From positions 434,001 to 498,000 of the forward strand of contig CDROCS010000457.1 in assembly GCA_977020255.1 (NCBI GenBank): a stretch of DNA of 64,000 nucleotides, given 5' to 3'. Origin of the DNA: Obrimoposthia wandeli. Its lineage: Eukaryota. Each line of letters starts with the position of its first letter. The stretch's first letter is position 1. The position numbers and the translations under genes were made by a program. Under the pieces are notes generated by a model. The model searched no databases. It saw only the letters and a list, made by a program, of their open reading frames with translations, and was not told where the DNA came from. Below are positions 29,530 through 64,000 of this stretch, piece after piece.

Positions 29530-31043
29530 TGTTAGGAATAGGTTTTGATAAAATTAAAATGATTAATCATTATTATACTAAAATAAAAATCCTTGAAAGC
29601 AAGGTTATAATTAAGATAAAATTAATTATAAAATTAAAATTATAAAAATAAAATCATAAGGAAAATATTAGGACCACGAAGGTCATGTGTAGTGTGTGAG
29701 TATTTAAGGGATTTTAAACTTTACCAAAAGGCCCCAAAAAATTTAGCTAAAAATAGGAAGAAGTTGATTAACAAGAAAAAAGTTCATTGAAAGAAGAAGC
29801 AAGCTCAGAATTAATTATACGGAGAAGGAAGCAGAGCCGAGACAACGAGCACTCAGACAAGTGCATTAGACCACTTAGCGACGCTGCAAGAAGACAGCGA
29901 CTATCCAAATCCCAGCGCCGAGATCCAGTCTGCGCAAATTAGCGACACCAAAAGAAGACGCTGAGAACCGCCAGCCAGATCCACATCAGCGAGGTAGGTG
30001 CACTTAAAATTAAGTGCAGCATTAATTTTGTTCTAGGACAGGAGAAGCAACTATAAAAAGAAGAAGCCAGTAATTAGAAGACACAAGATTCCAGGGAAAT
30101 AACAGAAAATTAAAATTGAGAACTCGTCGATTTATTCCGAGTAATAACAGAAAATTTCAAATTGAGAACTCGTCGATTTTAATCCGAGTCAGAGAATAGT
30201 AGAAAATAATTAGAGAAGCAGAAAAGGTGGGTCTGCAACGCAGAAGAAGAATTAACTTTCCTTTTTAGAAAAGTAGAGTGGAGCTAAAAGGAGGTATGGT
30301 CAGCATCTGGAACCAGGAATCGAACGAGCCCGGGCGTACGGATATTTGGAGTGAGCCGGAGTCTGCCTACAGATTAGGAAGGTGAGCAGTAACAAACTAG
30401 AGTACGATTTTGCCAATTGTTAAATTCTCATTTTGTTAAAAAGACTCTACAAATTAGAGTACGATTTTGTTAAAGTAAACTCAGTTGTCCATTTTTTGAG
30501 AAAACTAAAGTTGTCCGTTCTAAGTAAGGAATTTGACTTAGAGAATCAGATTGAGATAAAAGAGTTTGATTAAGAAAACTTATTAAAATCAACCCATATT
30601 TTTAGAGCAACCAGCTCTCTAAAATCTAAACTTAACCTATATTCGCCCATAATTTTAGAGCAACAAGCTCTCTAAAATCAGCCATATTTTTGGAGTAAAG
30701 ACTCTAGTAAACAAACCACCCTAAAATAAAATCGATACGTGGATCATCCCCACTTGTGTAGAGACTTTGTGAAAATTTTAGGAATTGTATTGTCATTTTT
30801 AGAACGTAATTAGAACATGTTTAGCTTTGTGTGTTTAGTAATAAACGATTTCCTACAACTAGACAGCGTTGTTATACCCTTCATATTAGAAATAACAAAC
30901 CTTCAGATAAGAATTGAGACAGACAAGCATAACATTAAGTAGGCCACGAACATCTACAAGTCCTGCTTCTATAGAACTCACGTTGGGGCCCTCTATTCAG
31001 AGGTTCTATATTAGAAAAAGAGTTTCATATAGAAACCCCAACA
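29530..31043 (+). repeat. 5' LTR (family A, copy A2)
   Basis: Starts tgttagg and ends ccccaaca. TATA-like tatttaa at 29701; AATAAA at 30840-30845. Confidence 0.92.
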
Positions 31044-31051
31044 TATTAAAT

Positions 31052-31358
31052 TGGTGACCCGAGTGAGGATAGCACTATTTTTTAGAACGTAATTAGAACG
31101 TGTTTAGCTTAGTGTGTTTAGTAATAAACGATTTCCTACAACTAGACAGCGTTGTTATAGACCCTTCAAATTAGAAATAATAAACCTTCAGATAAGAATT
31201 GAGACTGGCAAGCATAACATTAAGTAGGCCACAAACATCTACAAGTCCTGTTGCTATAGAACTCACGTTGGGGCCCTCTATTCAGAGGTTCTATATTAGA
31301 AAAACAGTTTCATATAGAAACCCCAACATATTAAATTGGTGCCCCAAATGAGGATAGC
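31052..31358 (+). promoter_or_regulatory. Two primer-binding sites (31052 and 31337) separated by a duplicated LTR 3' end (~31078-31328); probably elongator tRNA-Met
   Basis: TGGTGACCCGAGTGAGGAT and TGGTGCCCCAAATGAGGAT compared with the complement of the animal elongator tRNA-Met 3' end, TGGTGCCCCGTGTGAGGAT. Each follows ccccaaca-tattaaat. Confidence 0.75.
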
Positions 31359-31660: not shown

Positions 31661-31829
31661 ATCGAGTGGAATTGTTCTCAAACAAAGTCCTCGAATTAAA
31701 TAAATCGGAGTAAATAAATTGAATAAGTTAAGTCGAGTCGACAAAGTCCTCGAATTAAATAAATTGATATAAGAAATCGTAAAATAAGAATTGTGAAATA
31801 AGATAAAAGTAATAAGTAAATTGATATCG

Positions 31830-33800
31830 CAAACGAATACATAATTGATAAAACAACGAATAATAAAAAGGGACCCGCATTTAATACTAGAAGACAAAGA
31901 CAGATTCTTCAGGAAGAGATAAATAATAATAGTTTTAGCCGAATTGAACAGGTTCCTCAAACAGATAAAAAAGTAATAGAAGAAACTAGAATCGAAGAAA
32001 ACGTATCAGAAAGGGACGTTAATCAATCAGCAGTTTCAACCGACAGTTTTGATTTGACTGATTTGTTTGGTGAAATAAACCAAGAAGAAATTGAAGTTAT
32101 TGAAGTTCAAAACCCAGAAGAAATTGAAATTGCCAATCCAGTAGAGGTTGAGGAAGTTCAATTGGATAATATTGAAGAAATAGCTGAGAATATAGCTGAA
32201 AATATGGCTCAAGCAGGAGCTCAACCAGGTAATAACCCAGGAAATAATGTAGGTGGAATGAACGCAGAACAGTTGGCACAAGCCTTGAATGCGACATTGA
32301 GACCCAACTTTTCTGGATCACTGCAGATTACAAAGTTTAAAGGAGATGAGGAAAGTATTTGGGACTTCCTCGCAGAACAATCGAGTTGTGCAGATGTTCA
32401 AGGATGGAACGATAGAGAAAAATGTGTCCGTGTACAGGCACATCTGACCGGATTAGCACTTGAAGTGTATAAACATTTGACACAGCAGAACGTTTAAATT
32501 AGGAAACGTTGGAAAGTGCTTTTATTGGAAAATTGGTATTGGGAGACTTAGCAAAAGTAAATAAGCGAATCATGAGAGAACGGAAACAGAAACATGTTCG
32601 AAAGCGTGAGTTAATACGCGTATGTTTTGAGAACCTTGGCCGCACGAGTGAACCCAAGAAGAATAGTGAGAAATCAGGCAGGTGACCCTGTAGCTCAAGA
32701 AGCACAAGTAGCGGAAGATGAACGGAACCAAAATGAAATGGCAGAAGTTTTGTTAGATATATTTAGAGGAGGACTGAAAAAAGACATTAAAATGTTATTG
32801 GCCGTATCGGATACAAATGATTTTGATAACGCCGTTCGAAAGGCGAGAGAAATTGAGAAAAATATAAAAAATAACGCAGCATTGGCAATTTACGCAATGG
32901 CCGCAGGTTATGGCGATAATACAAAGGTATTTGTGAATAAGACAGAACCGAGTAATTTTCAGAATCGAAATTATGGACAAAATAAGTTCGAAAAAAGAAG
33001 ATGAATCCAGTAACGGAAATAGAGATAATTTCAGAAGTAGAAATATAGATTATTCGAGAGGTAGAAATAATAGCGAGCCTTGGAACAGGAATCGAGACGA
33101 TTCAAGAGGTAGAAGTAGTAATGATTCGTGGAACCGAAATAGAGATGATTCCAGAAATAGATTTGGTAGAGATAATTCAGGAAATCGCCAACCGTGGAGA
33201 GGAGACGATAGGAATTATAACGCAAACAGAGGAGAGCGAAATGACTTCCGATTTGGAAATAATACCGGAAGTAGTGATAGAAGATTCAATAATCGAGGAA
33301 GCAGTTTTGAATCAAATTTCCGAAGAAATGATTTTAGAGGACGCTATGACAATAGACAAAATAGTCGTCGAGTACAGTTCGAAGATGAACAAAATAAGAT
33401 AGATATTCGAAGGAGAATAATGTGTTATACGTGTAAACAGATGGGTCACTACTTGAGAGATTGTACGAGAAGTAAAGAATTCGGAACTAACAGATTTGGA
33501 AATAATAATTTCGGAAATAATAATTTTGGAAATAATTATAGAGGATATAATTCACCCCCGCCGTGGAATAGAGGTGGTGGGTATACTCCACCGCAATGGA
33601 GACCGAATAATCAGTATACGGATAGACAACAGTCACCAGACAGATACAATAATTATGCAGACAGACAGCAAGGAGCTGAGAGATACAATAATTACGTAGG
33701 ACAGCAAGGAGCTGAGAGATATAATAATTCCGGAAGATATAATAACAATAATGTTGACAAGACAAACAGTCGTGAGGGTTCACCAAAACCGAAGGGAAAT
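31830..33800 (+). pseudogene. gag: Gag (frameshifted) with CCHC zinc knuckle and R/N/G-rich repeats
   Basis: Fragments 32054-32497, 32627-33004 and 32973 onward. Capsid-like LQITKFKGDEESIWDFL..W..LTGLALEVY and ESVS*YAYVLRTLA. Knuckle CYTCKQMGHYLRDC at ~33422-33463. Confidence 0.88.
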
Positions 33801-34337
33801 TTTAGTTACGTAAATGATGACAGCGATAGGAATCTCGAGACCGAACTTCGACGCGAAATAGATTTTGAAGATAGTGATAATAAATTCGAACGAATGTTGG
33901 GAATAATTAAAGATTCACCGCATACAAAGATGGCGAATTCATCTACGTTGTCGAAACAAGAAAAAAATCTACACTCAAGAGAAGAGATGAGTGATTTGAT
34001 GAACCGAATACTAGAAGTGCATGAGACACCAATCGAGAAAACGTGTAACGCACAACCTATGACTGATCACATAGAAGTAGCAAGAAATGCTAAGAGTATG
34101 GAAAATGTGATAAAGATAATTAATGAAGCTAAAGAGACGTTGAATCAACCGTTAGAGGAAGCGAGTGAAGCTCCAGAAGTTTTGGCAAAACTACAAACAA
34201 TTAAAGTTCACAGATTGGAAGAAGTGCGAGCAGAATTGGTTAAACATAGTCATGATAACTTGACTTACAAAGACATATTACGAGGATTATTGAAAGGATA
34301 TGGTCGTTACGTACAGAGATCAAACCAAAAAGGAACG

Positions 34338-34565
34338 CTGAAAATTTCACTTCGATTAATTTCCGGACAGATTATGCATGAAAAACTTAACGTATACCAA
34401 ACAATGAAAACAGTTCGAAAAAAGTTGGCCGAGAAACTTGAAATTGATGGAATGAATATGTTGTTCCATTATAAAGGGAGATCACTAGATGATGAGGACG
34501 TACCAGTCGAGTGTGGATATCCGATAGGAAACGAATTAGAGGAAAAGATTGATGTCATCACTGTA
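34338..34565 (+). CDS. SUMO/ubiquitin-like domain within the Gag-extended ORF
   Basis: LKISLRLISGQIMHEKLNVYQTMKTVRKKLAEKLEIDGMNMLFHYKGRSLDDEDVPVECG..EKIDV follows the beta-grasp pattern and has SUMO-like F..G..L.D...P...IDV. Confidence 0.7.
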
Positions 34566-35061
34566 GGACGTCAGGAGTTAGTAGATAATGAAGGATTGGC
34601 TAAGATATTGAATTCTGCGTTAGATATGATAACAACGCCTATAGAAATTTTAGACAGTTCAAGCGAAAGCGGAAATAATAATGTAGCTGAAGCTTGGAAC
34701 AAGACGTCCACACCTGAACCAAACGTAGCTGAACCAGACGTGGAACCAAAAAATGAGTTGACGAATCTGGTAGTTGAATTACCACCAGAGCAGGATATAA
34801 TTCAAACCAGACAAGATGAAGTCACGGTTGTAGCTAACCAAGTGAGAGAAAGCGAAAATGTAACCGAACTAGTTGGAGAAGACGAAGTCTCCGATATTGT
34901 AGATTTAGATTCACCAATTTGGCATGCCGCATACAGAGATAGACAAGCAGAGCAGACGATGCGACAAAACGAGGAGATTGGTCATGTAGCAGGACCAAGT
35001 CAAGAGGTACGGTATAATGATGAACCGTATGATCCAGGTGAGAATCAAACTGAGTATCAGT

Positions 35062-35095
35062 ATTTTCGAAGAGGACCTGGAAGACCTAGAAAGGA
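35062..35095 (+). other. AT-hook motif
   Basis: RRGPGRPRK in ORF 32973-35198. Confidence 0.6.
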
Positions 35096-35222
35096 CGGAA
35101 GTATATTACGAAATGTTCTAACTGCACCTCAAACTGATGAGGAGAGACATCAAAGAATTGGGCAGTTAGAAGCGTCATTAGAGCAGTATAGTGCATAGCG
35201 AAATGAAGATATCAGAGGTGAT

Positions 35223-35630
35223 ATGAATTCGGAAGCTCCAAGTAGTAAATATATACTTACGGGAATTCTCAGACAAGTAAAGCCGAAGTTGTTCAAAATG
35301 TACAAAGATGAAACAACCGATATAACAGACAATTTGACTAGAGCAGTTAGATCACAAATGTCTGCAGTGAAGAGAATGACTGCGAATCAAGGATACCATG
35401 TATCGATAGACAAATTTTACGATGGCGAAGTTTTAGCGAGATTATGAGGAAACCAGACTACAAATAAAAAGCTAATCACAGCGATTACATACCTATGTTT
35501 CCAATTGACGGAAAGAACGAGCCAACCCCACGAAGTCAAACAAGGAATAAATGAAGCGATGTATCTGATCGAGAACGTATTGCAGCGACGAATTGTCGAA
35601 AACGGAGGTTGGGCAAAATTAAGCGACTAC
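35223..35630 (+). pseudogene. Bcl-2-like domain (one internal TGA)
   Basis: RL*GNQTTNKKLITAITYLC sits at a BH1-like position. NVLQRRIVENGGWAKL matches BH2 (cf. RHLHTWIQDNGGWDAF). Same frame as the Gag ORF and the env signal peptide. Confidence 0.55.
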
Positions 35631-35738
35631 GCTAAAACCATTGTGGAAATGAATGAAGACGATGATGAACAATGTCATGAGAATCGTCAAAGAGAAAATA
35701 AACAATACCGTCCGAAAGAAAGAAACAATCAACCAAAT

Positions 35739-37545
35739 ATGTCCACAACGTTGATGATGATGATGTTAGTAATGTTTATGGGAATGCAACAGGCATCAGC
35801 GTTAGTAGCATACGACTGTAGCGTACCACAGATGGGACAAAAGTATTCACTGTCCAGAATCACAGCCATCAAAATTAGAAATTAAAGGTGTTGAAAACTA
35901 TGTCGTGTATTAGGATGTTGATAAAATACAAGTACAAGTGAAGGAATGTTCAGTTCATTCAAGTTATCACGAATTTTACTGTGGTCATAGAAGTTTCATG
36001 TCGGAAATCACACCTACCACACCGTACAAACCACACAAGGTCTTTCCGAGAGATTGCGAAGACGCATTTCGAACAGGAAAAATAGAAATAGATAAGAATT
36101 ACACACCTGACGTAAAAGTTGGGGTGAGACGATACGAAACAGTCACGAGAGTAGGACGACGATGGGCTGATGGATCTTGTGACGGAGGAACAAAAAACGT
36201 GCGTGGTACCAAAGTAACAGCCTTAGTAATGGACGTAACTTACCAGATCGAATTAAAAACATGGACCGCAAATTTTGATAAAAATACAAAACGAATGATG
36301 AAGTATCCGGAATGTAGATTGACAGATACATCTTGTCATACAGGTTAATCCACAATTGTGTATCACGTGGATACAAAACAATGCTCATTAGTATTTTTGA
36401 AAGAAATTAAATTTAATAAAATAAAAGGGTTCCTGTATAATAAAGATGGAGAAGGATTTCATAACACAACAGGACCAATTCCTACGACGCTGACACGTAC
36501 ATTGTTAATGGCAACATCAACAGAAGAAGGATTGATATTTATTAAAAAGAGAAATAAAGCGCGATGCGGAATGACTGTTAGTACTACAAACTATCCTGGA
36601 ATAGTTTTGTCAAGAGAATCAATAGCATTGGCAGGAACCAAGTTAAAACCTAGAGATATGCAGCTACACACGTATTTTAATAATAAAATTGATTTCTATT
36701 ATCATAAAGGATTGATGCAAATGGAACAGTTATATCGGATGATGATTGAGAGAGATTGTCAGTTAAACAAAGAGATTGTAAGAACAAAGTTAGCATTAGC
36801 TATTACGAATCCGGACATGGTAGTACCATTATTACCCTTAGATGAAGGAGTATTTGCTAAAACCATGGGAGAGGTACTGTATACTTACAAGTGTAAAAAA
36901 GTAGAAGTACAGTTGAGAAAAACAGACCGATGTACGAGTGAATTGGCAGTAACGCATAATTTAAAAGAACTCTTTGTTGAACCAATCACGAGAATGATAC
37001 TTCCAAAAGACACTCCAACCAAAGAAATCAGCTGCTCTAATATAATGGCACCTGAATATCAGATGACGAATGATCTATGGATAACGCTACCTGACCGAAA
37101 ACAAACAACAACTTCAAAGATGATAAAAATGACGACTCTTAAAGGAAAAATGAAATTCGAAGCGATAAAGAATATGGAAAATGTAGGTCTATACAATGAG
37201 AAAGACTTAAAAGCAGCCTGGAACGAAATAATGTTTCCAGTAAGAAGGGCCAGAGTACTTACGGAGATGGTACATCGTGCATTACCGCCAGGAGCTAGAT
37301 ATGCGAATTTTGATATGTTATTGTCGCCAAGTCATTTCAAGGAAGCAGCACATCAGACATTTAGAAAGATGTGGGGGAAATTCCTTGTTTTAGGACAGTT
37401 ATTTTCAGGTATTTATGTTATAATTAAATTTGTGCAGGTAATTATAGCCCAGGTGTTGTCTACGTATAGTTTATACAGGATAACCGGAATCACCTGGCAA
37501 CTTATAATTGGATGTTTTCCATTTTTAGCTAAATATATAATGCAC
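35739..37545 (+). pseudogene. env: Envelope-like class III fusion glycoprotein (chuvirus/Jingchuvirales G-like); one frameshift (~35860-35930) and one stop (36346)
   Basis: Signal peptide MSTTLMMMMLVMFMGMQQASA followed by LVAYDC. Motifs CSVHSSYHEFYCGHRS, YFNNKIDFYYH, CQLNKEIVRTKLALAITNP..GVFAKTMGEVLYTYKCKKVEVQLRKTDRCTSELAV..LFVEPITRMI. C-terminal hydrophobic block WGKFLVLGQLFSGIYVIIKFV...LIIGCFPFL. Confidence 0.82.
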
Positions 37546-37914
37546 CATCATCACGAGAACGAGTTGCGAGCCCTCAAGAAGGAGCAACATCAAACGAGAA
37601 CCATGATACGAGAACCAAGAAACTACCGAGACGACAACGACGACGATAACGATAGTCCAGGAGAATATGCGAAGATACCAAATACAGGACAAGCAAAGAA
37701 TCCATTACAAGACAAGGAAGAAGTGGAGCCAAACCTATATCCAATGAAGGAATTAAAGGAAGAGAAGGAAAAGTTCAAGAGAAGCATTTTAATGATAAGA
37801 TGGCCTAGAGTGAACTACAGTGAGATTCCACAAGCAGAAGAAAGAGACAAAAAAGATAATTCCAGAAGTATTCTGAAGTCTAGGATATCCAATGAGAATC
37901 CGAATGCTCCACCA

Positions 37915-38200
37915 CAGGTAGCAGTAACACTGAACGGAAGAGAATACCTTGTCGAAGTTGATACTGGATCTGCAGTATCAGTGCTGAGTAAAGAAATCTT
38001 GTCATCAAAAGAATTAGGAGCAGTATGTCCTAGAAAACAGACATTTGTTAACGTAAATGGTACAGATGTAGTATCAGAAGGAACACTGAAATGTAAATTA
38101 ATTATTGATGGAAGACCATTGCAGTTAAATGCTAGAATATTCACAGATTGTGGTAATCCAGTCATGATTCGGATGGACGTAATACGAATGTTTGAAGGAA
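37915..38200 (+). CDS. Retropepsin aspartic protease, copy 1
   Basis: VTLNGREYLVEVDTGSAVSVL (DTG at 37960)...FVNVNG...PVMIRMDVI. Confidence 0.85.
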
Positions 38201-38450
38201 TAATAATATTACCAAACAACAAGAGTTCAAATAACAACAGTTCAGTGAGAGATATAAAGATGTTGAGAGGACCTACAGTTGAAAAGGAAAAATACACTAG
38301 TTTCTGTATGGGAGATCCGTACCGAAACAGGAAACAGGAAGTGTTAGTAAAGTCGATACTTCATTACAAAGGAGTAGACAACGGACCACAAGCCATGGGG
38401 AGGAGGAAAATAACATATGATAGTATAGGAGAAACAGCTCCTTTTAGAAT

Positions 38451-39445
38451 CGAGAGGAATAGACGAAGGTCACTAGAACCGTACCATTCAAAAGAAATGA
38501 CACACAAAATGGCGAGAACGGGTTTACAAATGTTAAACGGAGATACGACAAAAAACTCTGGTTCTGAGAAAGTAGTACGATGCGTATATTGTAGAGTAAA
38601 GTTTAGAAATTGGGAAAACAATGATAACCCAATGAAACGTCATAAAAGAAAAGCACCAACATGTCCATTCCTCCTGAAATTGAGAACTGCAAACGAACCA
38701 AAAATTCAAACTGGAAAGGCACCCGATTTTGACAACAGTGACGAGATTCCAGAAGGAGGAACAGTTCAAATAATAGGCATGTGATAACAAATAGTCGAAT
38801 TGAAGACGTATTCGAAGTAATGCGAGAAATAAACGAATGTGACGAACAATATCGAGAGGTAACATTTGAAGATCCGAGACTTAAAAAATTGGCAAAAAAG
38901 GGACTTTTTGCTATAAAAAAGGATGGTAAAGACGTAATTAAATGCCACAAATGTAAAAAAGAACGAATTATTGACAGATATACTCTTGAGTTACCTAAGA
39001 AAACTTTACATCATGAATTTTGCGAGTTTGTAGTTTTAAAATCAAAATAAAGCAAAAAGAACAGAAAACTGAATGTATAGTCGAATACCAAATCACACGG
39101 AAAGAGATTTTGGCTCAACAAGACACACCGGTAGTGTCATTCGTGAGAAGACTATATCCAAAAGAAGCAGAAAGAATCAGAGATTTGGTAGAATTAAAAA
39201 TAAAAACTACGCGAAACGGATACGGATCAATTTTTGAATTACTACGAGATAAAGATGACAGTTCAATTGAAACAAAAGAGAAAGAGTACATAAATGAACT
39301 AGAATACATGCTAGAAGATCTGGAATGCGCAGTTTGTATGGTCAACAAAGTAGAAGTTGCCTTTTTACCATGTAGACATGTGAGAACATGCCGGAGACGT
39401 GCGAAGGAAATGGTAACATGTCCGATTTGTAGAAGAATAATAGAT
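38451..39445 (+). pseudogene. IAP-like module: BIR - BIR - RING (frameshifted)
   Basis: BIR1 RRRSL..MARTG..VVRCVYCRVKFRNWENNDNPMKRHKRKAPTCPF (CX2CX16HX6C). BIR2-like REVTF..LAKKGLF..DVIKCHKC..HHEFCEFV. IAP-type RING CAVCMVNKVEVAFLPCRHVRTCRRR..CPICR, with one Cys to Arg change. Confidence 0.88.
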
Positions 39446-39559
39446 CGACAAGTGAGAAATATTAGATTTCACTATCCAAACAAAATAAGTGGACCGACAA
39501 AATGTAATAATTCGATAAATACGATATACCATATGGGAAATATAAATAGAGCACAGCGA

Positions 39560-42500
39560 CCAGCAGCTATCATTAGAGCAAATAATTTAAAAGTAAAAGC
39601 CTTAATTGATACAGGTGCTGTAGCTTTGATAGTAAGTGAGGATTGTTTGACAGAGGAACAGAAACAAACAATGGCAGAACCAGATCAATTCTTTGTATCG
39701 GCCAATGGAGACCCTGTAAAAGTGACGGGAATATTACCCTGTACATTTATAATTAGACGTAATACGATCACTATATCAGTTAGAATCATGAGAGAATGTC
39801 CTGAACCTACAATTTTAGGAATGGATGTATTATCACAACTCAAAGGGATAAGTATCGATTTACAAGATCCAAGATTGAAGGATAGCACATCAAATAGACA
39901 AATAAACCAAATCGATGTAATTATAGAAAATCCTATAAAAATCGGTAAAAGATCACAATTTCTTATTCAAGGTCACACATTATCAGAAGATAAAGGACCA
40001 GTTGTGTTCGAACCATCACGGGATTTCATAGAGAAATACGAATTATCAATTGTGAGTACAGTATGTCTGATCGAAAACCACAAAATATCAGTTAGACTGA
40101 TGAATACAACCAACAATGACATCCTGTTATACAGAGGAATGAGGTTGGTAAAGATAGCACAGATAGAGAATTCCACTGTGTGTGCTATGAAACTCGATAA
40201 AGACACGAATGATTACGAAGAAATAGTAATCCAATCAGAAAGACTGACAACCAGAGAAAAGAAACAATTACTCGATCTAATACATAAATTTCCAAAAGTA
40301 ATTGCAAAAAATCCGTATGACATAGGAGAAACACCTGTCATAAAACACACAATACCACTGACAGAAGATAAAGTAGTCAGAAGAAGACCATATCGAGTAC
40401 CATTACAGTTACAAGATGAAGTCAAAAGTCAGATTGAAGATATGTCTAGAACAAGAGTAATTAGACCGAGTTTTTCACCATTTTCAGCACCTGTAGTGTT
40501 ACTAAAAAAAGAAGGATGGAAAAATAAGATTCTGTAAAGATTTCAGAGAACTGAACAAGATCACAAGAAAAGATGTGTATCCATTACCTAGAATTGAAGA
40601 GATGCTTGATAAATTAGGTGATTCAGACTATTTTACGACATTGGATTTGCAGAGTGGATACTGGCTAATCGAGATAGAGGAATAGGATAAATACAAAACA
40701 GCCTTTTCCTGCGGAGATGGACTATACGAATGCGAAAAATGCCATTCGGACTAACAAGAGCGCCAGCAACATTTCAGCGTTGCATGAATTTTGTACTCGC
40801 ATCGTGTGCAAACACGATGGTTTATATCGATGACATAATAATATTTTCTAAGACGTTCGAAGAACATCTAAAAAATCTTGAAGTTGTATTTAAAAGACTG
40901 GAAAACGCTAAATTAAAAGTTAAACCTACAAAATGCGAATGGGCTAAAGAGCGAGTAACATTTTTAGGACATATAGTATCGAAAGAAGGCATCCGACCTG
41001 ATCCAGCAAAGATCGAGAAAGTAAAAGCGCATCCAGTGCCAAAGACTGTTAAGGAAATACATAGTTTTTTAGGTCTTGCGAATTATTATAGACGATTTGC
41101 TGAACATTTTTCAGATATATCAACACCATTGAGAAAGTTGACGAGGGAAGATGAGAAGTTCATATGGGGAAAAGAAGCACAACAAGCGTTCGAGCATTCA
41201 AAGGAAAGACTGATAAAAGCACCAATATTAGCGTTTCCAGATATAAACCGACAATTAATACTGATGACGGATGCAAGTAACTATGCTGTAGTAGCAGTAT
41301 TGGGACAAGAGGATGACGAAGGAAGAGAACACGTCATCGCGTATGCGAGTAGAGGGTTAAACAGAGCCGAAAGAGGATACTCTGTTATTGAGAAGGAATG
41401 TATAGCCATAGTATATTCATGTAGACAGTACAGACACTACTTGCTAGGACAAAATGTATTCCTGTATACAGATCACAAACCACTACAGTTCTTGTACAAA
41501 CATAGAGACGATATGAACAGATTAAACAGATGGTTTCTGAATTTGTCCGAGTTTGATCTAGAAATCCGTTATAGAACCGGAAAGTGGAATGGCAACGCAG
41601 ATTGTTTGTCAAGATTAATAAATGTAGACGAGAAAGGAAACATAATTCCGGAAAAAGGTCAAGATGAAGTCAACGACCAAAAAGGAGAAGCAAATCTCCT
41701 AACGATTTTGCTGAAGACGCGTAAAATAGACAAAGAGATCATCAAGGAATAGAAAGAAGATGAAGAACTGAGTCTAATCAAAGAATTGTTAGTGAAAGGA
41801 GATATAAATGATGAAATGACGAAAAAATACTCGATAAAAGAAGGAATCTTGTATATTGTCAACAATGTCGGCAATATAGTAGTAGTAATTCCGAAGTCAT
41901 TGAAAACAGCAGTGATGATCCAGTACCACGATGGAACACTGGGAGGACATCTGTCAGGACGAAAGACAATAGCCAGAATCAAAGAGAAGTACCATTGGGA
42001 TGGGATGGAAGATGACATAAAACAATGGTGTAAACAATGTAAAGTATGTTTAACCAGAAAAGACACAGGAACTCGTACTAAAGTTCCACGGAAACCAATG
42101 CCAGTTCCTTTGGCACCAATGGAATTCACAGCGATGGATATATTGGGACCATTGAGAGAATCGAGTAAAGGAAATAAGTACGTCATAGTATTTACGGACT
42201 GCATGACGAGATGGGTAGAAGCATACCCCATGCAAAACCAGAAGGCTGAAACAATAGCGCAGATCTTAGTAGAAGAGATAATATTTCGATACGGAGTGCC
42301 TAGAAAGTTATTAACGGATCAAGGCAAGAACTTCACTGGATAAGTAATAAAAACAGTATCGAAGATATTCGGAATCATGAAGTAACAAACTTCACCATAT
42401 CACCCACAAACCGATGGTCTAGTATAAGGGTTTAATAAAACTTTATGTATGATGGTACAATCTTATTGCTCCGATAAGCAAGAAGATTGGGATAAGTATT

Positions 42501-42750
42501 TACCTTCATGTTTATATGCTTACAGAAATTCAGTTCGAGAGGCGATGGGTCACACACCATTCTATCTGATGTATCTCAGACAGAACAATATGCCAATGGA
42601 TCTGGAGTGGACCGAACCAACATCTCAGTAGATAGAAACTGAGCAATACATTGTCGTTATGATACAAAGACTACAATATGCTTGGACTAAAGCAGGATTG
42701 AAATTGAAATTCAATCAAGAAGATTACAAAGAACAATATGACAAAAAGAT
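39560..42750 (+). pseudogene. pol: Pol: protease copy 2, reverse transcriptase, RNase H, integrase (stops and two compensating frameshifts)
   Basis: KALIDTGA (39608). RRPYRVP, FCKDFRELN, YPLPRIEEMLDKL, MPFGL..APATFQR, YIDD (40823). RNase H TDAS..EKEC..TDH..NADCLSR. Integrase HDGTLGGH..CKQC, MDILGPL, TDQG.NF, TSPYHPQTDG. Confidence 0.96.
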
Positions 42751-43720
42751 AATATGTCAGATGGTCACCAAATACTTTGATGGAAAGACCATTGTATGTA
42801 ATATACCGGTATCTCACCAATTGAAAACAGATCAAACGGAAGTATCTGTAAGGTTGAGCGTAATAGAAGGATTCCATTCGCCAACCCAACCGGAAGTAAC
42901 AAACAATAAAATCGTTAAAGCAACGACAGAGTTACGCATTAACAGCGGATACCGAAAGTGGGAAGCTAAAAATAAACCACAAAGAATCAATATGATCAGA
43001 GAACAAGTGACAAACTCAATCTAACCAAAATATCATGCTGAAATACTATCATCCGCGCCAAGTATGATTACATCGATAAACGACGAAATTATAATTTTAC
43101 TAAAAAATCGATGGCCATCATCAACCGAGATACGAGTCAACTTAGCAAAAACACCGATATCTAAGCTGAATGTCATCTATTTCGATGGATTGTCCATCAT
43201 GGGTAAATTGGAAACAATTGTCATGTGCTATGGAGCACAGTTCCAAGTTGAGATACTTAAGGATAGTGTAATACCTTATCCGATTCATAGAGACTCAGGA
43301 CCAGTCAATCCAATTATTCTAAGCCCTTCATTAATTTCAGTTCAAACAGACATCCCAGAAAACCCTTCGAGCGAGTCTAGTCAAAACAGCGAACCTCAAA
43401 GAAGCGATCCAGAGTCAACAGAATCCGAAGACAACATAATAGAGCGATTCGAAAGAACCATGGAAGTTGAATTCGCAAAAGAGAGCAGAAAAAGACGAAA
43501 CATAGACTTCGTGAAACAGAATATACAAGAAAGACGAATTAAATCCGCAGAAGAGACCGAATCGGAAGAGGAACTAACGAAGGAACAGACATCAGAGACA
43601 AAGCTGAATATCTCTCCAGCAATACGAATGCTGAGAGGAAAGAAACTGGCGAAATTATTCATCATAGATGAACAAATATAAAAGCGATTAGAAAGACTGA
43701 GACTTGAGGAGTCAGAATTG

Positions 43721-46460
43721 ATGCCACCAATAAGTGAGATAATTCCAGACATGTTATACCTCGGAAATGTGGAAGACGCCACAGACGAAAAGAAACTGTT
43801 GGAAAAATGAATAACATATGTGATCAATGTTACAATGAATCACGAATCGCGATACAAGACAATCAGAGCTATGACATTAAGAGTGAAAGACTCAATGGAG
43901 GCTAATCTTCTCGAATGGTTCGGAGAAACAAACGAGATAATTTACAAAGAACTCCAAAACCAAGGAAAAGTATTGGTACATTGTCAGAAAGGAATCTCTA
44001 GATCAGCAACCTTGGTATTAGCATATCTAATAAAGAATAGGCGAATGCAGGTACTAGTGTTAGGTTTAGGAATTAGGAAATTAAAATAATTAGTCGATTT
44101 TATACTAAAATAAAAATCCTTGAAAGCAAGGTCGAAAATTAAATTAAATATTAATTTTAAAATTCAAAATTAAAATTATGGAAGTTAGGATAAAAATTAG
44201 GAGGACCACGATGGTCGTGTATAGTGTGTGATATATAAGGTTAGAGTTAATTAACCCAAAAGTGCAAAAAACGGGAATAATTTAGAATCTGCTAACGTCA
44301 GCAGAAAGAAAAACGTCAGCAGAAAAAGGTAAGCACATTCACGTGCAATTAATTTAGATCGATTTAGTTAACAGCAGTCGCCGAGCCCCGGAAAAGCAGA
44401 AGAAGTCAAGAGTGCTGATTGACAGCACATAGTCAACTAGTCAACTATATAAGTCGTGGAACTCATATCACAAGTTGACGAAGTAGAAATAGCCGAAATC
44501 CAAATTGCCAAGTTGACTGCAGAGGATCAACAATTGCCTGCATTAATTGTTTAAGAAGCATATTCCTACAAACAAAAAGACCAGAACGAAATCAATATTC
44601 CAGGTCTACTGAGAGGAAAATTGGTAAGTCAGATTTGGATTTGACTTCATTGAAATAATCAATAATTTAGATTGTCGCAGTTGATTGATTTAGAAGCCTA
44701 AAGTTTGATAAAAAGGAGCAAATAAATTGTTAAAGAAGTTCGCAGTTGATTTATTTAGAAGCCTAAAGTTTGATAAAAAGGAGCAAATAAATTGTTAAAG
44801 AAGTTCGCAGTTGATTGATTTAAAAGCCTAAAGTTTGATAAAAAGGAGCCAATAAATTGTTAAAGAAGTTCGCAGTTGATTTATTTAGAAGCCTAAAGTT
44901 TGATAAAAAGGAGCCAATAAATTATTAAAGAAGTTCGCAGTTGATTTATTTAGAAGCCTAAAGTTTGATAAAAAGGAGCAAATAAATTGTTAAAGAAGTT
45001 CGCAGTTGATTGATTAAGAAGCCTGCTCATTTCCAACGGTTGCATTCGAAGACGATCCCACAAGTTCGTCAGTACTACATACGGACTCCAGTACCGGATT
45101 GACGTTCGAGCAACGTATAGGTGAGAAACGGTTTAAAATAATCATTGCCCCTAGTTGGCAATTAGGATAAACTCATTGTCCCTAGTTGGCAATTCGGATT
45201 TGTAACATATTCAAACAAAATCATTGTCCCTAGTTGGCAATTCGGATTTGTAACATATTCAAACAAAATCATTGTCCCTAGTTGACAATTAGGATTGTCT
45301 TTAACAAAATCATTGTCCCTAGTTGACAATTAGGATTTGACTCTAATCTAGGTTGAACTGTGTCTAATATTCGTTGTAATATTGTTTCGAATTTGTGTAA
45401 ACTAATATCATTTTGCATTTGTGTTAAACTAATATCATTTCGAATTTGTGTTGAACTAATATCATTTTGAATTTGTTTTAAACTAATATCATTTTGAATT
45501 GTGTTAAACTAATATCATTTCGAATTTGTGTTAAACTAATATCACTTCGAATTTGTGCTAAACTAATATCATTTCGAATTTGTGTTAAATAATCATTGTC
45601 CCTAGTTGACAATTCGGAGCAAATACTCATTGTCCCACGTTGACAATTCGGAGCAAATACTCATTGTCCCAAGTTGACAATTCGGATAACGTATTCATTG
45701 TCCATAGTTGACAATTAGGCTTTTATAAGAATCATTGTCCACAGTTGACAATTCGTGGTTAAATTCACAATCATAGAATTGCCAAGTCAAGAAACTTTAC
45801 CCACACGTTCTAAGTTAGGTTGAAGAAATTTAAGAGAGTTGTGTTATAAATTAACCAACCTAGGAAGAAGATTGCATTGCACCTTTGTCTTCATAAGAAT
45901 AAAGGTTTAACCCCAACATCCAAACCGATAGCAGAGTAAAGTTATTAAGAAATCTATAACACGAGCTTATTCTCGAGTTAGAAGAATAACTCTAAAATCT
46001 CGATCACCCCGAACGTAAAATCGATACGTGGTTCATCCCCACTCGTTGTAGAGACTTACAGAAGTCTTAGGAATTTTTACTATACTTTTTAGAAAATACG
46101 TACATAAACGTATTGTTGTGTTTAGTTTCGTGAATTACCAATAAACGATTTCCTACATTAGAACAAGTCGTTTTTTCACCCTTCTGATTAAGAGACATCA
46201 AATCAAATACCTTCAGATAATACAAGAGATAGGCAACCATAACACTAAGTAGGCCACGACCAACTTTAAGACCTGCTTCTATTCGAACTCACGTTGGGGC
46301 CCTCCGCATTCAAGAGGATCTGTACCAAGTTTCGTATAGAAACCCCAACACTAGAAGCGCTGAAATATCTACATGAAAGACGAAGTATCGCGAACCCAAA
46401 CCTTAATTTTTTGGGACAATTGTCAAATTACCAACTTCTGTTACAAGAACGGAGACGGAT
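43721..46460 (+). pseudogene. Dual-specificity phosphatase in the pol reading frame, split by a solo LTR (43721-44057 + 46355-46460)
   Basis: PISEIIPDMLYLGN..*ITYVINVT..VKDSMEANL..VLVHCQKGISRSATLVLAYLIKNRRMQVL|EALKYLHERRSIANPNLNFLGQL. The HCX5R motif and general-acid Asp are intact. Confidence 0.93.
44058..46350 (+). mobile_element. Solo LTR, family A (copy A3), inserted in the DUSP gene
   Basis: tgttagg...ccccaaca with TSD CTAG at 44054-44057 and 46351-46354. Removing it restores MQVLEALKYL. It contains ~58-bp, ~27-bp and attgtccctagttg-based tandem arrays. Confidence 0.96.
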
Positions 46461-46514
46461 GGATGACAAAAGAATTTCCTCCAATCACTATCGTTTACCG
46501 GATTATTCTTAGCA

Positions 46515-46965
46515 GGAATCGACAAAATCACCCAGATAATGCCGAAAGTATTTCTATGTCACTCAGGAGATATAGATACTGCTGGATTAAAGTTCCACAG
46601 TATCACTCGAGTGATTAACATTGTTGAAGTCGAAAACGAGATAATCAGTATATGTCAAAATACTGAAGATGACACTACACGTTATATACATGCTTCAAAT
46701 CGGGAGGTAACCGACGCACAACAACACCTGGGGAAGTTGACTCAAACTATTCAAGCCGAAGTCACAGAAGGAAACGGCGTTCTGATATATCACAAAAAGG
46801 TACAATGTTAGCACCTACCATGGGTGTATCCTTGTTGGTAGAGTACCATGGTCATACACCGGAGAAAGCGATGGTCTACATCAAACTGAATAGACCAGAT
46901 ACGGAATTCAAACCGTTACTCGTTCGAGAAATAGAGAAATACTCCGAAAGAAGGAAGCAACAACG
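46515..46965 (+). pseudogene. Second DUSP-fold domain, predicted catalytically dead
   Basis: KITQIMPKVFLC..SITRVINIV..GNGVLIYHKKVQ/LAPTMGVSLLVEYHGHTPEKAMVYIKLNRP is collinear with the first DUSP, but the catalytic Cys, Arg and Asp are absent. Confidence 0.65.
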
Positions 46966-49615
46966 AGAAATGAATGAAGTTACAACAACAGTGCCCAGCT
47001 ATCAGTACCGAAGATTGCTAGTACTAGGCTTGTTAAGTTGTCTAATGCCAACAACGGGAGCACAAGAGATAGGCTCCAACCACGGAAATAATTCCTGGAC
47101 CAAAGAAATCAACAACTACATCATGCAGTACAATACACCGACACTGATGATGCTATTAGTGTTGATAGGACTGATCAATGTTTGGCTAATCAGAAAATGT
47201 TCCCGTTCCATAAGAACCGACAGAGAAAGATTCCAGTTTGTAAAAATGAAGAGACCAAACGGACCAACAACCCAAGCACTTGTTTATCTAGACGAAAGGA
47301 TCGAGGAGAACATAGTGAACGAAGCGATATATTATCCACAAAACAGACTACTGAATCAATTCCGAATGGACTACGAAGCTGACCGACAGCGCACACTTGA
47401 TAGAATATCAGCAACGTTCGCAGGATGCGAGCGAAGAAAACGAATTGTAAAGGAAATACAAAAATATGCGGATTCAAAAGGTACGACGTATATATTCGAC
47501 GGCGATGTCATCAAAACACATGAGTATGGAAGTAAGAGAGTGATAATCGAAACGAAGGAAGGACATAAAACATGCTTGTCCGCCAAAAATGGATTCGGAA
47601 AGTTGATTATGCAAGGCAAACAGGTACAGTTGATTATCGGAAAAACTGGAATCGAAGAAATGTCAAAGCAACGACAGACAACCAAAACAAAACGACATGG
47701 CCAGAAACGGATGTATCTGAAACGAATAATAATCAAAACCGTTTGCAAAAGGACGACCAAGGCCCTGTGCACTGTTGCACAAGTATTGATCTATGGAGTA
47801 GTAATTGGATTGGTACTACAAGCTATTCCAACCGGTAAAGCTGAATTGATGACGCTAGCTGAATATAATTTACATTTGAGAAATCTAGACAACACCCTAG
47901 AAATAATCAAGACGTCTCACAGTCAAGCCGTGATGATAATGTGTGTGAAAGGATGTCCAGAACGAGTATGTATAATACTAGCGACAGAAATGAAAACACT
48001 AAATGGATATTATGGAGTTAGTGTTGTCACATGTGAAGGATACACATTTGGACAAACTAAGATAGTACTTCTCAGTGACATATCCAACCAAAGTACACAT
48101 AAATTGAAAATATTAACCATCAAAAGTAAAGGGATACAAGCAATACGTTATGGTATTCTATAATTGGTTAATCCAATACTGGCATTGATTATCGGAATCA
48201 TAATATTAATATTGCTCATCTTGTTTTGTTGTACAAAGATCGAGCTGAAATCAAAAAAGAAACGTCATGATCTCGCAAGACGAACAGGTCAAATGAATTT
48301 ACAAAAATTCGACACAACTATACCAAGACCAGCCTTCATAAATGAACCAGCACCGGAATATCAGCCAACGATATATGAACATATCGAGGTAGACCATACT
48401 TCACGAGTAACTTGAGTTATCCCAGAGAAGTTCCTGAGATTCGGAACCGGACGTTAATAGGAATCATGCTGATCATACAAATCACCACGACCGAGGCTGG
48501 TTACGAGATCATGATCAGTAAATGGAGACAAGATACGATACGTGCGTTATACATAGAAATACCTATACTAAAAATGAATCACTTAGTAGACATTCAACTA
48601 CAAACATCCGGAACCGAAAATGTCGATCAGAAATTGTATGTCATCCGCCAGATTGAAATAAAGATTGACCAACATACACTTTACTACCGACTGATACTAT
48701 TCTATTATGAAAAGGTATTATACCTATGAATAACAATATCAAAAAGGAAACGGATTATCCAAATTAGCCGAACAAAGTCAGTAATATTGCCTTACGACGA
48801 GCGCATCTGGAAAGTTATTGACAGGATTATTGTCACAGGTAAACGACGTAAAACTGTATGGAATTCTGTTAATTTATTCTTCAGATTGTTAGAAACTGAC
48901 CAGGTAACAGTGGCGTGTCCCAATCCAGATGACGGAATCAAATTCGCAATACAACTTCAAATGTTAGTACCACATTATGATGCAGAATGTCTATGTAACC
49001 GAATTTCCAGCAATGCTAAAGAGACCTCTACCATAATCATAGTAATAACAGGGGAAATATTCTATATAACTCTAAGATACCAGACACGTCGATTTCGTGG
49101 ACTCGGTATAAGTATTAAAGACCCAAGAAATTCAATTCCGGAAACCAAACACAGTCACAAAGAAGGCAGAGGTGAAAGGAAGAAAGTTCAATTCCAGAAA
49201 CCAAAGCATAATTATCGAGAGGAATAGAGTGAAGGGAACGATTCCACTGGATCTCAAATCTCGAATAATAATACCCTTTAGACAAAAAACAAAATATCCG
49301 AATCCGCGATTTATTAGAAAATCAGACATAATACACGGAAACCGAACAACACTACTTGAAACGCCATCCAAACCGACAAAAATCAAAATAAAATACGGTT
49401 ACCAATCCTCAGACAGCGGGAATACTGCAGTAAATGCTTTAATTGTAATGGCTGTAGTGTCAACTGAAGTAGTTCTTTTGACAGTTGTGTGCGTAAAAGG
49501 CAGTCAGGTATACCCAAGAATACGACGAAGATGCAAAGAGCTACGATGCTGTAATACAACCATGATGGAGGGAGTGGAATTACGACTCTTACCTCCGCCT
49601 CCCATCAAGACATGA
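46966..49615 (+). CDS. Series of unknown membrane/secreted proteins (ORFs 46805-48163, 48164-48415, 48412-48729, 48787-49227, 49172-49615)
   Basis: Several hydrophobic stretches: LLVLGLLSCLMPTTGA, TLMMLLVLIGLINVWLI, VLIYGVVIGLVLQAIPTGKA, PILALIIGIIILILLILFCC, LIGIMLIIQITTTEA, ALIVMAVVSTEVVLLTVVCV. No family recognised. Confidence 0.5.
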
Positions 49616-50396: not shown

Positions 50397-50692
50397 TGGA
50401 AGGTAACTTTTTGACATAAACGTGACATCATGAACTAACCCTGTGTATCGCATACCGCGGTAAAATAGCTACCATAATTGTAATCATATTTGTATAATAT
50501 TGTGAAACTGTAAAATTACCTTTACCATTTTTATGTGTGATGTTTATTGTACTGGGAAACCCCTAAAGACAAATTTATACTTAGAATGCGAAAAACATAC
50601 CCAAAGAAAAGACAAAAATCGGTAGGTTAAAATATTAAGGCTTAAAATCATATAAACTTCAAATAAAAAAGTGATTTAACCGATACACCATT

Positions 50693-50923
50693 GTGCAGAT
50701 GATATGCTCGGTGTGCCTCAACAAAGTTCGGGACTCCTCGGCAATCCCTGCCGGGTGCCGTCACCGATTCCACGAAGCGTGCCTCTATATGTGGGCCAAA
50801 GCTCGACCCGCCGGCAACATCACATGCCCGATGTGCCGAGCACCCTTCACCGAGTGGACGATCCAATGCCGTGGACGTTCAAAGGGCACCCGCTCACCTA
50901 CCAGCTGTATTGGTGGCGAGTAG
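50693..50923 (+). CDS. RING-H2 ORF 3 (intact)
   Basis: CSVCLNKV..GCRHRFHEACLYMWAK..ITCPMCR. Confidence 0.88.
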   Translation: MQMICSVCLNKVRDSSAIPAGCRHRFHEACLYMWAKARPAGNITCPMCRAPFTEWTIQCRGRSKGTRSPTSCIGGE

Positions 50924-51507: not shown

Positions 51508-53078
51508 TGTTAGGATTAGGTTTTGATAAAATTAAAATAATTAATCATTTTTATACTAAAATAAAAATCCTTGAAAGCAAGGTTATAATTAAGATAAAAT
51601 TCATTATAAAATTAAAATTATAAAAATAAAACCATCGGGAAAATATTAGGACCACGAAGGTCATGTGTAAGCGTGTGCGATATATATAGATGTTAAAATA
51701 AAAGTAAAGGGCCCCCAAAAAACAGAATTAGCCGGTTAGAAAAAAGCCCAAGGAAAATTGAATTAAGCGAGTCAATTAAGGAAATTATCAGATCGATTCA
51801 TTGTGAGAATCGAGTCAGTTGCCGAGACAGACGAAATCCAACAGCAATCCATTGCTGAACAGAGCCGCGCCGGGAGCAGAGACAGCCATCTGTAAGTAAG
51901 TGCTTTTTATTAAGTGCTCTACTTAAAATCGTTCCAGGAGCTAAAGTAAACAATAAACAAAAAAGAAAAACACTTACTAAGCCAAAAAAAGGAGAAACCC
52001 AATTTCCAGGAAAGCACTTAGCAATCGGGGCTAAAGAAAAAGAAAGATAAATTAAGTACTTTTAAAAAGCACTTACGTAACAATTTCCAGGAAAGCTATT
52101 AGTGCTTCGGGAAGGCCAGGAAAATTAGAATTGCATAAATAGAGAAGTGCAAAAAAGAAAATAGAACGTAGCCAGAGAATCGCGCCTCATCTGACCTCAG
52201 AGGAAAAGCAAGAAGGTAAATCGGCGACTAAGAAAGCTAAGTTATTTCCTTTAGGAGCCAGAAAAATTAGAAGCCACAAATTGGAATCGGAACAAACAGA
52301 GGGCATCGGAGCGATCAGGAAAGATCTCTTCTAGCAACCAGATTCGAGCAAACAGAGGGCATCAGAGCGAGCAGACCAAATCTTTTCCTACAACTAGACC
52401 TGGGCAAACCTAGGACCGCGTCAGCCGACTCCGTTGATCGACGCCAATAAAGCAAATAAAGGTAAAAAACAGCTGACGATTTAGATCCTAAATAAAGGAT
52501 TGTGTTTTATTGAATCTCCATAAGAGAAATTTAGATCCTAAATAAAGGATTGTATTTTATTGAATCTCTATAAGGAAATTGTAGATCCTAAATAAAGGAT
52601 TGTATTTTATCGAATCTCCATAAGGGAAAATTAGATCCTAAATAAAGGAGAACTAGAAAACGGATTTGACCCTAAACTACCCATAGTTTTAGAGCAACTA
52701 GCACTCCAAAATCAGTCCCCATTTTTAGAGTAAAGACTCCAGTAACTAAACAAACCGAAAATAAAATCGATACGTGGATCATCCCCACTTGTGTAGAGAC
52801 TTTGTGAAAGTCTTAGGAATTGTATTGTCAATTTTAGAACGTAATTAGAACGTGTTTCACTTAGTGTGTTTAGTAATAAACGATTTCCTACAACTAGACA
52901 GCGTTGTTATAGACCCTTCAAATTTAGAAATAACAAACCTTCAGATAAGAATTGAGACAGGCAAGCATAACATTAAGTAGGCCACAAACATCTACAAGTC
53001 CTGCTTCTATAGAACTCACGTTGGGGCTCTCCGTCTGAGGATCTATATTAGAAACAGTTTCATATAGAAACCCCAACA
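51508..53078 (+). repeat. 3' LTR-position copy of family A (A4)
   Basis: tgttagg...ccccaaca, with ~55-bp tandem repeats at 52480-52650. The centre is unlike the 5' LTR. Confidence 0.88.
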
Positions 53079-63476: not shown

Positions 63477-64000
63477 TGTTGGGGTTTCTATATGTAACTC
63501 TGTGTTCTAATATAGATCCTCTTTAGTGGAGGGCCCCAACGTGAGTTCTATAGAAGCAGGACTTAAGGATGGTTGTGGCCTACTTAATGTTATGCTTGCC
63601 TGTCTCAATTCTTATCTGAATGTTTTTGTTGTGTCTTAATCTGAAGGGTTTAGAACAATGCTTTCTAGTTGTAGGAAATCGTTTATTTATTAACACACTA
63701 GACTAACACGAATCAATACGTTTAAGTACGTATCTCTAAAAAGTTACAATAAAATTCCTAAGACTTCTGTAAGTCTCTACACAGGTGGGGATGAACCATG
63801 TATCGATTTTACTTTAGGTTTGATTAATCTTTTAGAGTCTTTACTCCAAATTGTGGGTAAGTTCAAGGTTATAGACTCTATAGGGCTGGTTGCTCTATAA
63901 GTATAGTTTGGTTTTAGAAAACTCACAATCTTCACTTTAACTTCAAAACTCACGAATTGATTTCACAATTTTAACTCCAAACTAATCAAGTTAAACTCAA
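63477..64000 (-). mobile_element. Family A LTR 3' end (copy A6), runs off the window
   Basis: tgttggggtttctatatg... closest to A5. No PBS adjacent. Confidence 0.9.

Follow-up and report, generated by a model that had tools for sequence, protein, structure and literature searches.

A decayed Burro-like element in the window

The window, as we call the whole stretch of DNA analysed here, comprises 64,000 nucleotides of contig CDROCS010000457.1 (434001-498000) within the 1.35-Gb assembly of Obrimoposthia wandeli, and all positions below are window coordinates. It contains a DUSP phosphatase domain (D1) followed by a pseudo-DUSP domain (D2), and the D1-D2 stretch is part of a decayed copy of a Burro-like gypsy element. 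The element spans positions 29530-53078 and is ~23 kb in size, the interval counting a 2.3-kb insertion in and an 834-bp deletion out. Its domains are arranged in one frame as gag-env-PR-BIR-RING-PR-RT-IN. On the + strand, Pfam profiles successively match a CCHC knuckle, a Monjiviricetes-type fusion glycoprotein, a protease, BIR, RING, a second protease, RT, RNase H and integrase. Two protease stretches are likewise found in another copy of the family, L063. The features of the window copy are as follows:

29530..31328, + strand: 5' LTR of the element
31820..35198, + strand: gag region with a CCHC knuckle (zf-CCHC, E 1e-4), then a weak ubiquitin-like segment (E 0.0025, below cut-off)
35448..37640, + strand: env (Monjiviricetes-type fusion glycoprotein), fragmented, between gag and pol (PF24664, E 2e-65 and 5e-15)
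37900..39860, + strand: aspartyl protease-like segment, BIR, second weak BIR, RING and second aspartyl protease (Pfam)
40400..42747, + strand: RT, RNase H and integrase with several stops, the integrase end lost to a deletion
42748..43720, + strand: remnant of the post-integrase spacer, with part of three ~100-aa beta-rich repeats and an acidic linker (stops at 43022 and 43679)
43721..44057, + strand: D1, N-terminal part (DSPc, E 6.4e-26, with the stop read as X)
44058..46350, + strand: solo LTR belonging to a sister subfamily and interrupting D1 (CTAG target-site duplication, 44054-44057 and 46351-46354)
46351..46467, + strand: D1, C-terminal part (DSPc profile 105-131), with PNLNFL, an FXF-type MAPK-docking segment, at 46396-46413
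46524..46948, + strand: D2, here in a frame other than that of D1 and with a shift at ~46793
47009..47191, + strand: signal-peptide-like hydrophobic segment (47009-47062) and transmembrane segment (47144-47191), directly after D2
50675..50923, + strand: short stand-alone ORF encoding a RING finger, in the 3' region (zf-RING_2, E 2.9e-9)
51508..53078, + strand: 3' LTR of the element

The two LTRs (29530-31328 and 51508-53078) can be aligned at their ends only (89-91%), their middles being differing tandem arrays, and the element is flanked by ATTA and CTTA. The 3' end of the 5' LTR is duplicated together with the primer-binding site (285 bp; first end at 31043, second at 31328). Env (35448-40534 region) has a signal-peptide-like start and one transmembrane segment. 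Given its location between Gag and Pol, it is the cytoplasmic tail of Env, and not Gag, to which Pol and the phosphatase pair would be attached. A Bcl-2 profile matches the element weakly (E 0.13); the Pfam profile search gave no dUTPase match in it, and neither MATH_TRAF nor ankyrin was matched by Pfam among the ORFs scanned. Elsewhere in the window, a host gene of the retinoblastoma family (RB_A, E 5e-26; RB_B; DUF3452) has exons at 15805-22644 on the - strand, the upstream end of this gene facing the element at a distance of 7 kb. There is also a piggyBac-type transposase fragment at 5066-5677 (DDE_Tnp_1_7, E 5e-18), and more related LTRs, apparently solo, lie on both strands (9158-11105, 59674-61800 and 63526-63811).

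The general-acid Asp codon of D1 (43889-43891) and its HCQKGISRS motif (43979-44005) are intact, in agreement with the original prediction, and the two halves of the domain match DSPc over profile positions 1-103 (E 6e-26) and 105-131. The ends of the solo LTR that separates the halves are 84-93% like the LTRs of the copies L062, L064, L066 and L068, and 73-79% like the 5' LTR of the element itself. Among contigs from four runs of one study, two exact pieces span the junction of D1 and the solo LTR, each with fewer than 31 letters on one side, and were discounted. The pol frame had been predicted to run past the integrase into the DUSP, interrupted only by the solo LTR and one TGA. D1 is indeed in the same reading frame as pol, and both the solo LTR and the TGA in D1 (43808) are real, but eight stops interrupt the frame over 40691-44057, including one 14 codons ahead of D1. 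An in-frame 834-bp deletion at 42744-42747 has taken the end of the integrase with its GPY motif and part of the spacer, so the predicted ~350-aa spacer is a deletion remnant; the true spacer is ~540 aa long. Farther on, 19 bases are absent at ~46469 and a 1-base shift occurs at ~46793, so that the collinear domain lacking Cys, Arg and Asp is present as described but outside the frame of D1. The ~46793 shift recurs in the copy L019 and sits in an A-run, and may stem from slippage or misassembly. Among many copies, frameshifts cluster at one A-run in the D2 loop (8/89 copies at one codon), through slippage or long-read assembly error. Owing to the stops, the 834-bp deletion and the frameshifts, the window copy cannot make the fusion. 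The term "active DUSP" thus fits the family, as far as intact motifs can tell, and not this broken copy.

Conservation of the phosphatase pair across the family

Natural copies confirm the predicted fusion of a DUSP and a pseudo-DUSP downstream of integrase: in L063, L065 and L067 a single open frame runs from RT and IN through D1 and D2. At a further locus, C399, a frame of 4,633 aa is open through D1, and in L061 and L063 the PF24664 env lies upstream of PR in the open frame. D1 begins 577 aa past the GPY motif in L063. A degenerate pattern for HCQKGISRS has 5,927 matches in the genome in several synonymous forms (control, 0) and a 30-base pattern for the D2 loop has 3,247, counts that may include both haplotypes. 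Both domains are covered in 79/89 sampled copies, D2 is present in 20/20 additional D1 copies chosen for their absence from the D2 pattern list, and the integrase core lies at the expected distance in 33 of the 40 copies checked. A capture confined to the window copy, which would have undermined the original prediction, is ruled out by these counts: the D1-D2 pair is family-wide. Most copies are broken. Divergence of D1-D2 among copies is 0-13% and the median terminal branch is 0.018, so that the expansion is recent. The genome contains 14,214 DSPc candidates, and thousands of element-borne domains would swamp its phosphatase annotation.

Selection was assessed by contrasting alleles private to one copy, which reflect decay after insertion, with alleles found in at least eight copies, which reflect replicating lineages, no ancestral or consensus sequence being built. 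The set comprised 107 copies, L093 (a duplicate of L051) and the error-ridden L161 and L170 having been left out. Both domains are under purifying selection. Shared-variant pN/pS is 0.09 (0.05-0.17) in D1 and 0.06 (0.01-0.12) in D2, versus 0.85 and 0.80, respectively, for singletons. The N/S counts in D2 are 8.5/42.5 for shared variants and 179.5/62.5 for singletons (P 7e-11 on 89 copies). The excess of amino-acid change among private over shared variants indicates that D2 is maintained; copies were chosen on D1, a choice that favours intact D1 but not D2. Constraint does not differ between the two domains (P 0.46). In the 33 copies with IN, at a threshold of four copies, pN/pS is 0.01 for the IN core, 0.06 for D2, 0.12 for D1, 0.11-0.20 for the spacer parts and linker, and 0.23 for the region downstream of D2. 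D2 lies below the downstream region (P 0.005) and not clearly below the spacers (P 0.08). Purifying selection acts on the spacer and linker as well, so the phosphatases do not stand out by constraint alone.

The spacer itself (L063 aa ~2312-2664; remnant at 42748-43350 in the window) consists of three ~100-aa beta-rich repeats that are 21-22% identical and have Y-x-D-G in common. They appear IPT/TIG-like by eye, are under purifying selection, and gave no family match in Pfam, PDB or protein searches. On the other side of the pair, the polyprotein runs ~900 aa past D2 (L066; 47009-49615 in the window) with at least four hydrophobic segments, possibly representing several small membrane proteins; this region has weak matches only (Orthoreo_P10, E 0.001-0.05).

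D1 is predicted to have the DSP fold, with CX5R and the general-acid Asp. In a sample largely picked on D1, Asp is kept in 105/106, Cys in 104/107 and Arg in 105/107 copies. D2 is, on the evidence of its sequence, a DSP homologue with all four catalytic positions replaced: His by Tyr (79/80 copies), Cys by Gln (78/79), Arg by Leu (92/97, with Leu, Phe or Ile in 97/97) and the acid Asp by Asn (96/97). It also lacks the MAPK-docking motif, the equivalent segment reading PDTEFK. The P-loops of both domains hold a Lys (HCQKG in D1, YQKKG in D2). The two domains are only 15% identical, and a doubt attached to the original prediction was whether the second has a DSP fold at all. Taken alone, D2 matches DSPc of Pfam (E 2.6e-6, profile 5-126 of 133), aligns with a 35-sequence DUSP profile in HHalign (94%, E 1.3e-7, 125 columns) and ranks DSP structures first in a PDB sequence search (best E 8e-4), which settles this doubt in favour of the prediction. 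The alignment-guided model of D1-D2 (pLDDT 85.7, pTM 0.60; pLDDT of the single-sequence AlphaFold model, 36) has no confident packing between the domains; in it, D2 repeats the strand and helix order of D1 with an extra hairpin, which is conserved (pN/pS 0.08). The model was built on a tandem-DUSP alignment, making the DSP-like shape of D2 partly circular. Because of this, and because both fold searches were filled by D1 matches, the fold of D2 is assigned from the sequence profiles.

Origin and possible role of the pair

In sequence and in predicted structure, D1 resembles the catalytic domains of cellular MAP-kinase phosphatases (MKPs) more than the poxvirus VH1-type enzymes with which the phosphatase had originally been compared. 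Its best sequence matches in the PDB are to DUSP10/MKP5 (E 5e-25), and the best structural match of its model is MKP-2 (Z 25.9, 36% identity, rmsd 1.2 over 143 residues), versus Z 19.2 and 24% identity for Orf virus OH1. DUSPs of large DNA viruses account for 75 structural matches at E <= 0.001, the viral DUSPs among the top 50 being 17-32% identical to D1. The nearest protein is a rhodanese-MKP, P0129 (49% identity), which matches the element essentially over the catalytic domain only; no rhodanese domain was matched upstream of D1. The counterpart of P0129 in the Obrimoposthia wandeli genome, C934, is 47% identical to D1 and contains two GT-AG introns inside the phosphatase domain, neither of which is present in D1. 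D1 and C934 both have a Leu 27 residues after the Cys. The missing introns and the common Leu fit capture from a spliced host message. Phylogenetic analysis leaves the placement of D1 among DUSPs unsettled and does not group it with the C934 MKP: AU tests reject none of four placements (p 0.10-0.22; quick tree, p 0.52), and the tree including D2 is distorted by the long branch of the latter. A protein search found no DUSP-bearing homologue among proteins of 1,832-5,831 aa, and among 1.84 billion representatives there was no close relative of the D1-D2 pair, the best single-domain identity being 48%.

The PNLNFL segment, an FXF-type segment opening helix alpha5, is kept in 82-85 of 85-88 copies per position. 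All 87 copies that cover the site have Leu, like the C934 MKP, at a position which, by MKP5 numbering, would correspond to MKP5 Y435 and MKP7 Y271. Around 25 residues past D2 there is a conserved segment, read by eye as signal-peptide-like, followed by a transmembrane helix (hydropathy and conservation, ~80 copies), suggesting that D1-D2 would be cytosolic and membrane-tethered.

We see about an even chance that D1 is a captured JNK/p38 phosphatase of the host-MKP type that keeps the producing cell alive, with D2 as a scaffold or regulator and not a trap. D1 would have been taken from a host MAP-kinase phosphatase, probably through its spliced message. The protease of the element would release D1-D2 from IN, and the hydrophobic segment after D2 would tether the pair to the cytosolic face of a membrane. 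D1 could dephosphorylate the stress kinases JNK and p38 and so damp death signalling in the cell that produces the element. The simplest reading, given the kept PNLNFL and the BIR and RING domains on one chain with D1, is that stress-induced death of the producing cell is suppressed. In the sections of PMC4802042 drawn on here, JNK1 is bound by the catalytic domains of MKP7 and MKP5 on their own, in MKP7 through an [FL]NF[LM]-type segment, and the bare catalytic domain of MKP7 lowers UV-induced apoptosis. In planarians, JNK is described as triggering apoptosis (PMC4055413). Against a JNK/p38 target, the allosteric Tyr reported to be needed for catalysis and MAPK binding by MKP5 and MKP7 (PMC9676401, in part) is replaced by Leu in D1. 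The role of D2 as a scaffold or regulator is the weakest step of this explanation. The original prediction made D2 a substrate trap of the STYX type. Trapping of phospho-substrates needs an Arg pocket, and STYX keeps its phosphate pocket (Arg, Asp). D2 has lost the P-loop Arg, the acid Asp and the LNFL docking motif, so that trapping is unlikely.

A bolder version, in which an enveloped retroelement would carry its own MAPK off-switch, a JNK phosphatase with a dedicated dead partner made 1:1 with integrase and placed on the particle membrane, strikes us as unlikely. If true, the ~6,000 copies would represent a large hidden source of MKP activity in the stem-cell and regeneration signalling of the host.

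It is unlikely that D1 acts on a different host target (ERK, a non-MAPK phosphoprotein or a membrane lipid), with D1 and D2 jointly forming a composite site for the substrate, in the manner of Cdc14 or receptor PTP tandems. The docking motif does not fix specificity, as it is present in all MKPs, whichever kinase they prefer, according to the same part of PMC4802042; ERK may therefore be a target as well. The unsettled donor subfamily, the Lys in both P-loops and the membrane segments after D1-D2 would also suit another target, and the conserved hairpin inserted in D2 would suit a composite site. However, the top sequence and structure matches are all protein DUSPs or MKPs, and the modest pTM with no confident D1-D2 packing does not favour a composite site.

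Packaging as such may occur, but the original model taken as a whole, with D1-D2 packaged in enveloped particles, D1 acting on MAPK or STAT upon entry like VH1 and D2 trapping like STYX, appears quite unlikely. In its favour, the polyprotein that contains the pair also contains integrase, a protein that has to be taken into particles; the element encodes an env; and DUSPs are frequent in large DNA viruses, as the structural matches above illustrate. On the other hand, D2 is devoid of the residues and docking motif a trap would need, D1 is nearer to cellular MKPs than to viral enzymes, and the signal-peptide-like segment comes after D2. Equally doubtful is that D1 targets the products of the element itself (Gag, RT, IN or the env tail) and times assembly or maturation, D2 being a structural spacer or dimerisation module. 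There is precedent, since VH1 acts on viral proteins; D1 would be made equimolar to, and covalently linked with, Gag and Pol, and the rhodanese domain by which host MKPs bind their kinases has no counterpart in the element. Nevertheless, the MKP-type LNFL surface that faces MAPK is nearly invariant, and the neighbouring BIR, RING and weak Bcl-2-like match point to host death pathways. Finally, a captured gene and its decaying duplicate kept merely because the frame must stay open are highly improbable, for although constraint extends over everything behind the integrase and the majority of copies are damaged, the need for an open frame does not purge amino-acid changes, yet these are scarce among shared variants of D2, which is also more constrained than the region downstream.

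Comparison with known systems

The published description of Burro/GYPSM1 of planarians matches the element in many respects: in each, a giant polyprotein has env placed in frame between gag and pol and includes BIR and RING, copies number in the thousands (PMC6431247, in part), and the gypsy order PR-RT-RH-IN between LTRs is the same. By its architecture, the element would point to a planarian as its host. The same source gives Burro a size of >30 kb and lists ubiquitin-like, BCL2-like and dUTPase-like motifs, MATH_TRAF and ankyrin repeats. The element described here differs in its ~23 kb and in having no MATH or ankyrin Pfam match in the parts scanned. In the main text of this review the word "phosphatase" occurs 0 times, and its section 7 names none, while the figures and supplement of Grohme et al. 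2018 may; the portion of PMC8532177 consulted on Burro expression never mentions a phosphatase. Apart from a possible label in Grohme et al. 2018, no description of a signalling phosphatase borne by a retroelement was found in the literature searched. The feature is real and under selection, and the phosphatase pair is new to Burro-like elements within that literature. The presence of a phosphatase-pseudophosphatase pair under selection next to the BIR and RING domains supports the proposal in PMC6431247 that elements of the Burro type interfere with apoptosis of the host. It also makes this proposal directly testable by biochemistry on phospho-JNK.

LTR retrotransposons are, to our knowledge, not known to carry signalling phosphatases, and the closest parallels to D1 and D2 are cellular or viral genes. 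D1 shares with MKP5/DUSP10 and MKP7/DUSP16 the DSP fold, D...HCxxGxSRS and the [FL]NF[LM] docking segment, but it has no rhodanese domain, carries Leu at the allosteric Tyr and is embedded in a retroelement polyprotein. Poxvirus VH1 and other DUSPs of large DNA viruses are likewise encoded by virus-like entities; however, they are stand-alone genes of DNA viruses, and no tandem dead domain was seen among the top 50 structural matches. Active and inactive phosphatase-fold domains occur in one chain in the D1-D2 tandems of receptor PTPs and in Cdc14. The receptor PTPs have the same active-then-inactive order but are cellular genes with the classical PTP fold, whereas in Cdc14, also a cellular gene, the inactive domain comes first. 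Like STYX and MK-STYX, D2 is a DSP homologue kept by selection in which the catalytic Cys is replaced, the defining property of the STYX type (PMC2175518, in part). It differs from them in having lost Arg, His, Asp and the docking motif too, and in being joined in cis to the active-looking D1. D2 is a compact new pseudophosphatase, under constraint equal to that of its active-looking neighbour.
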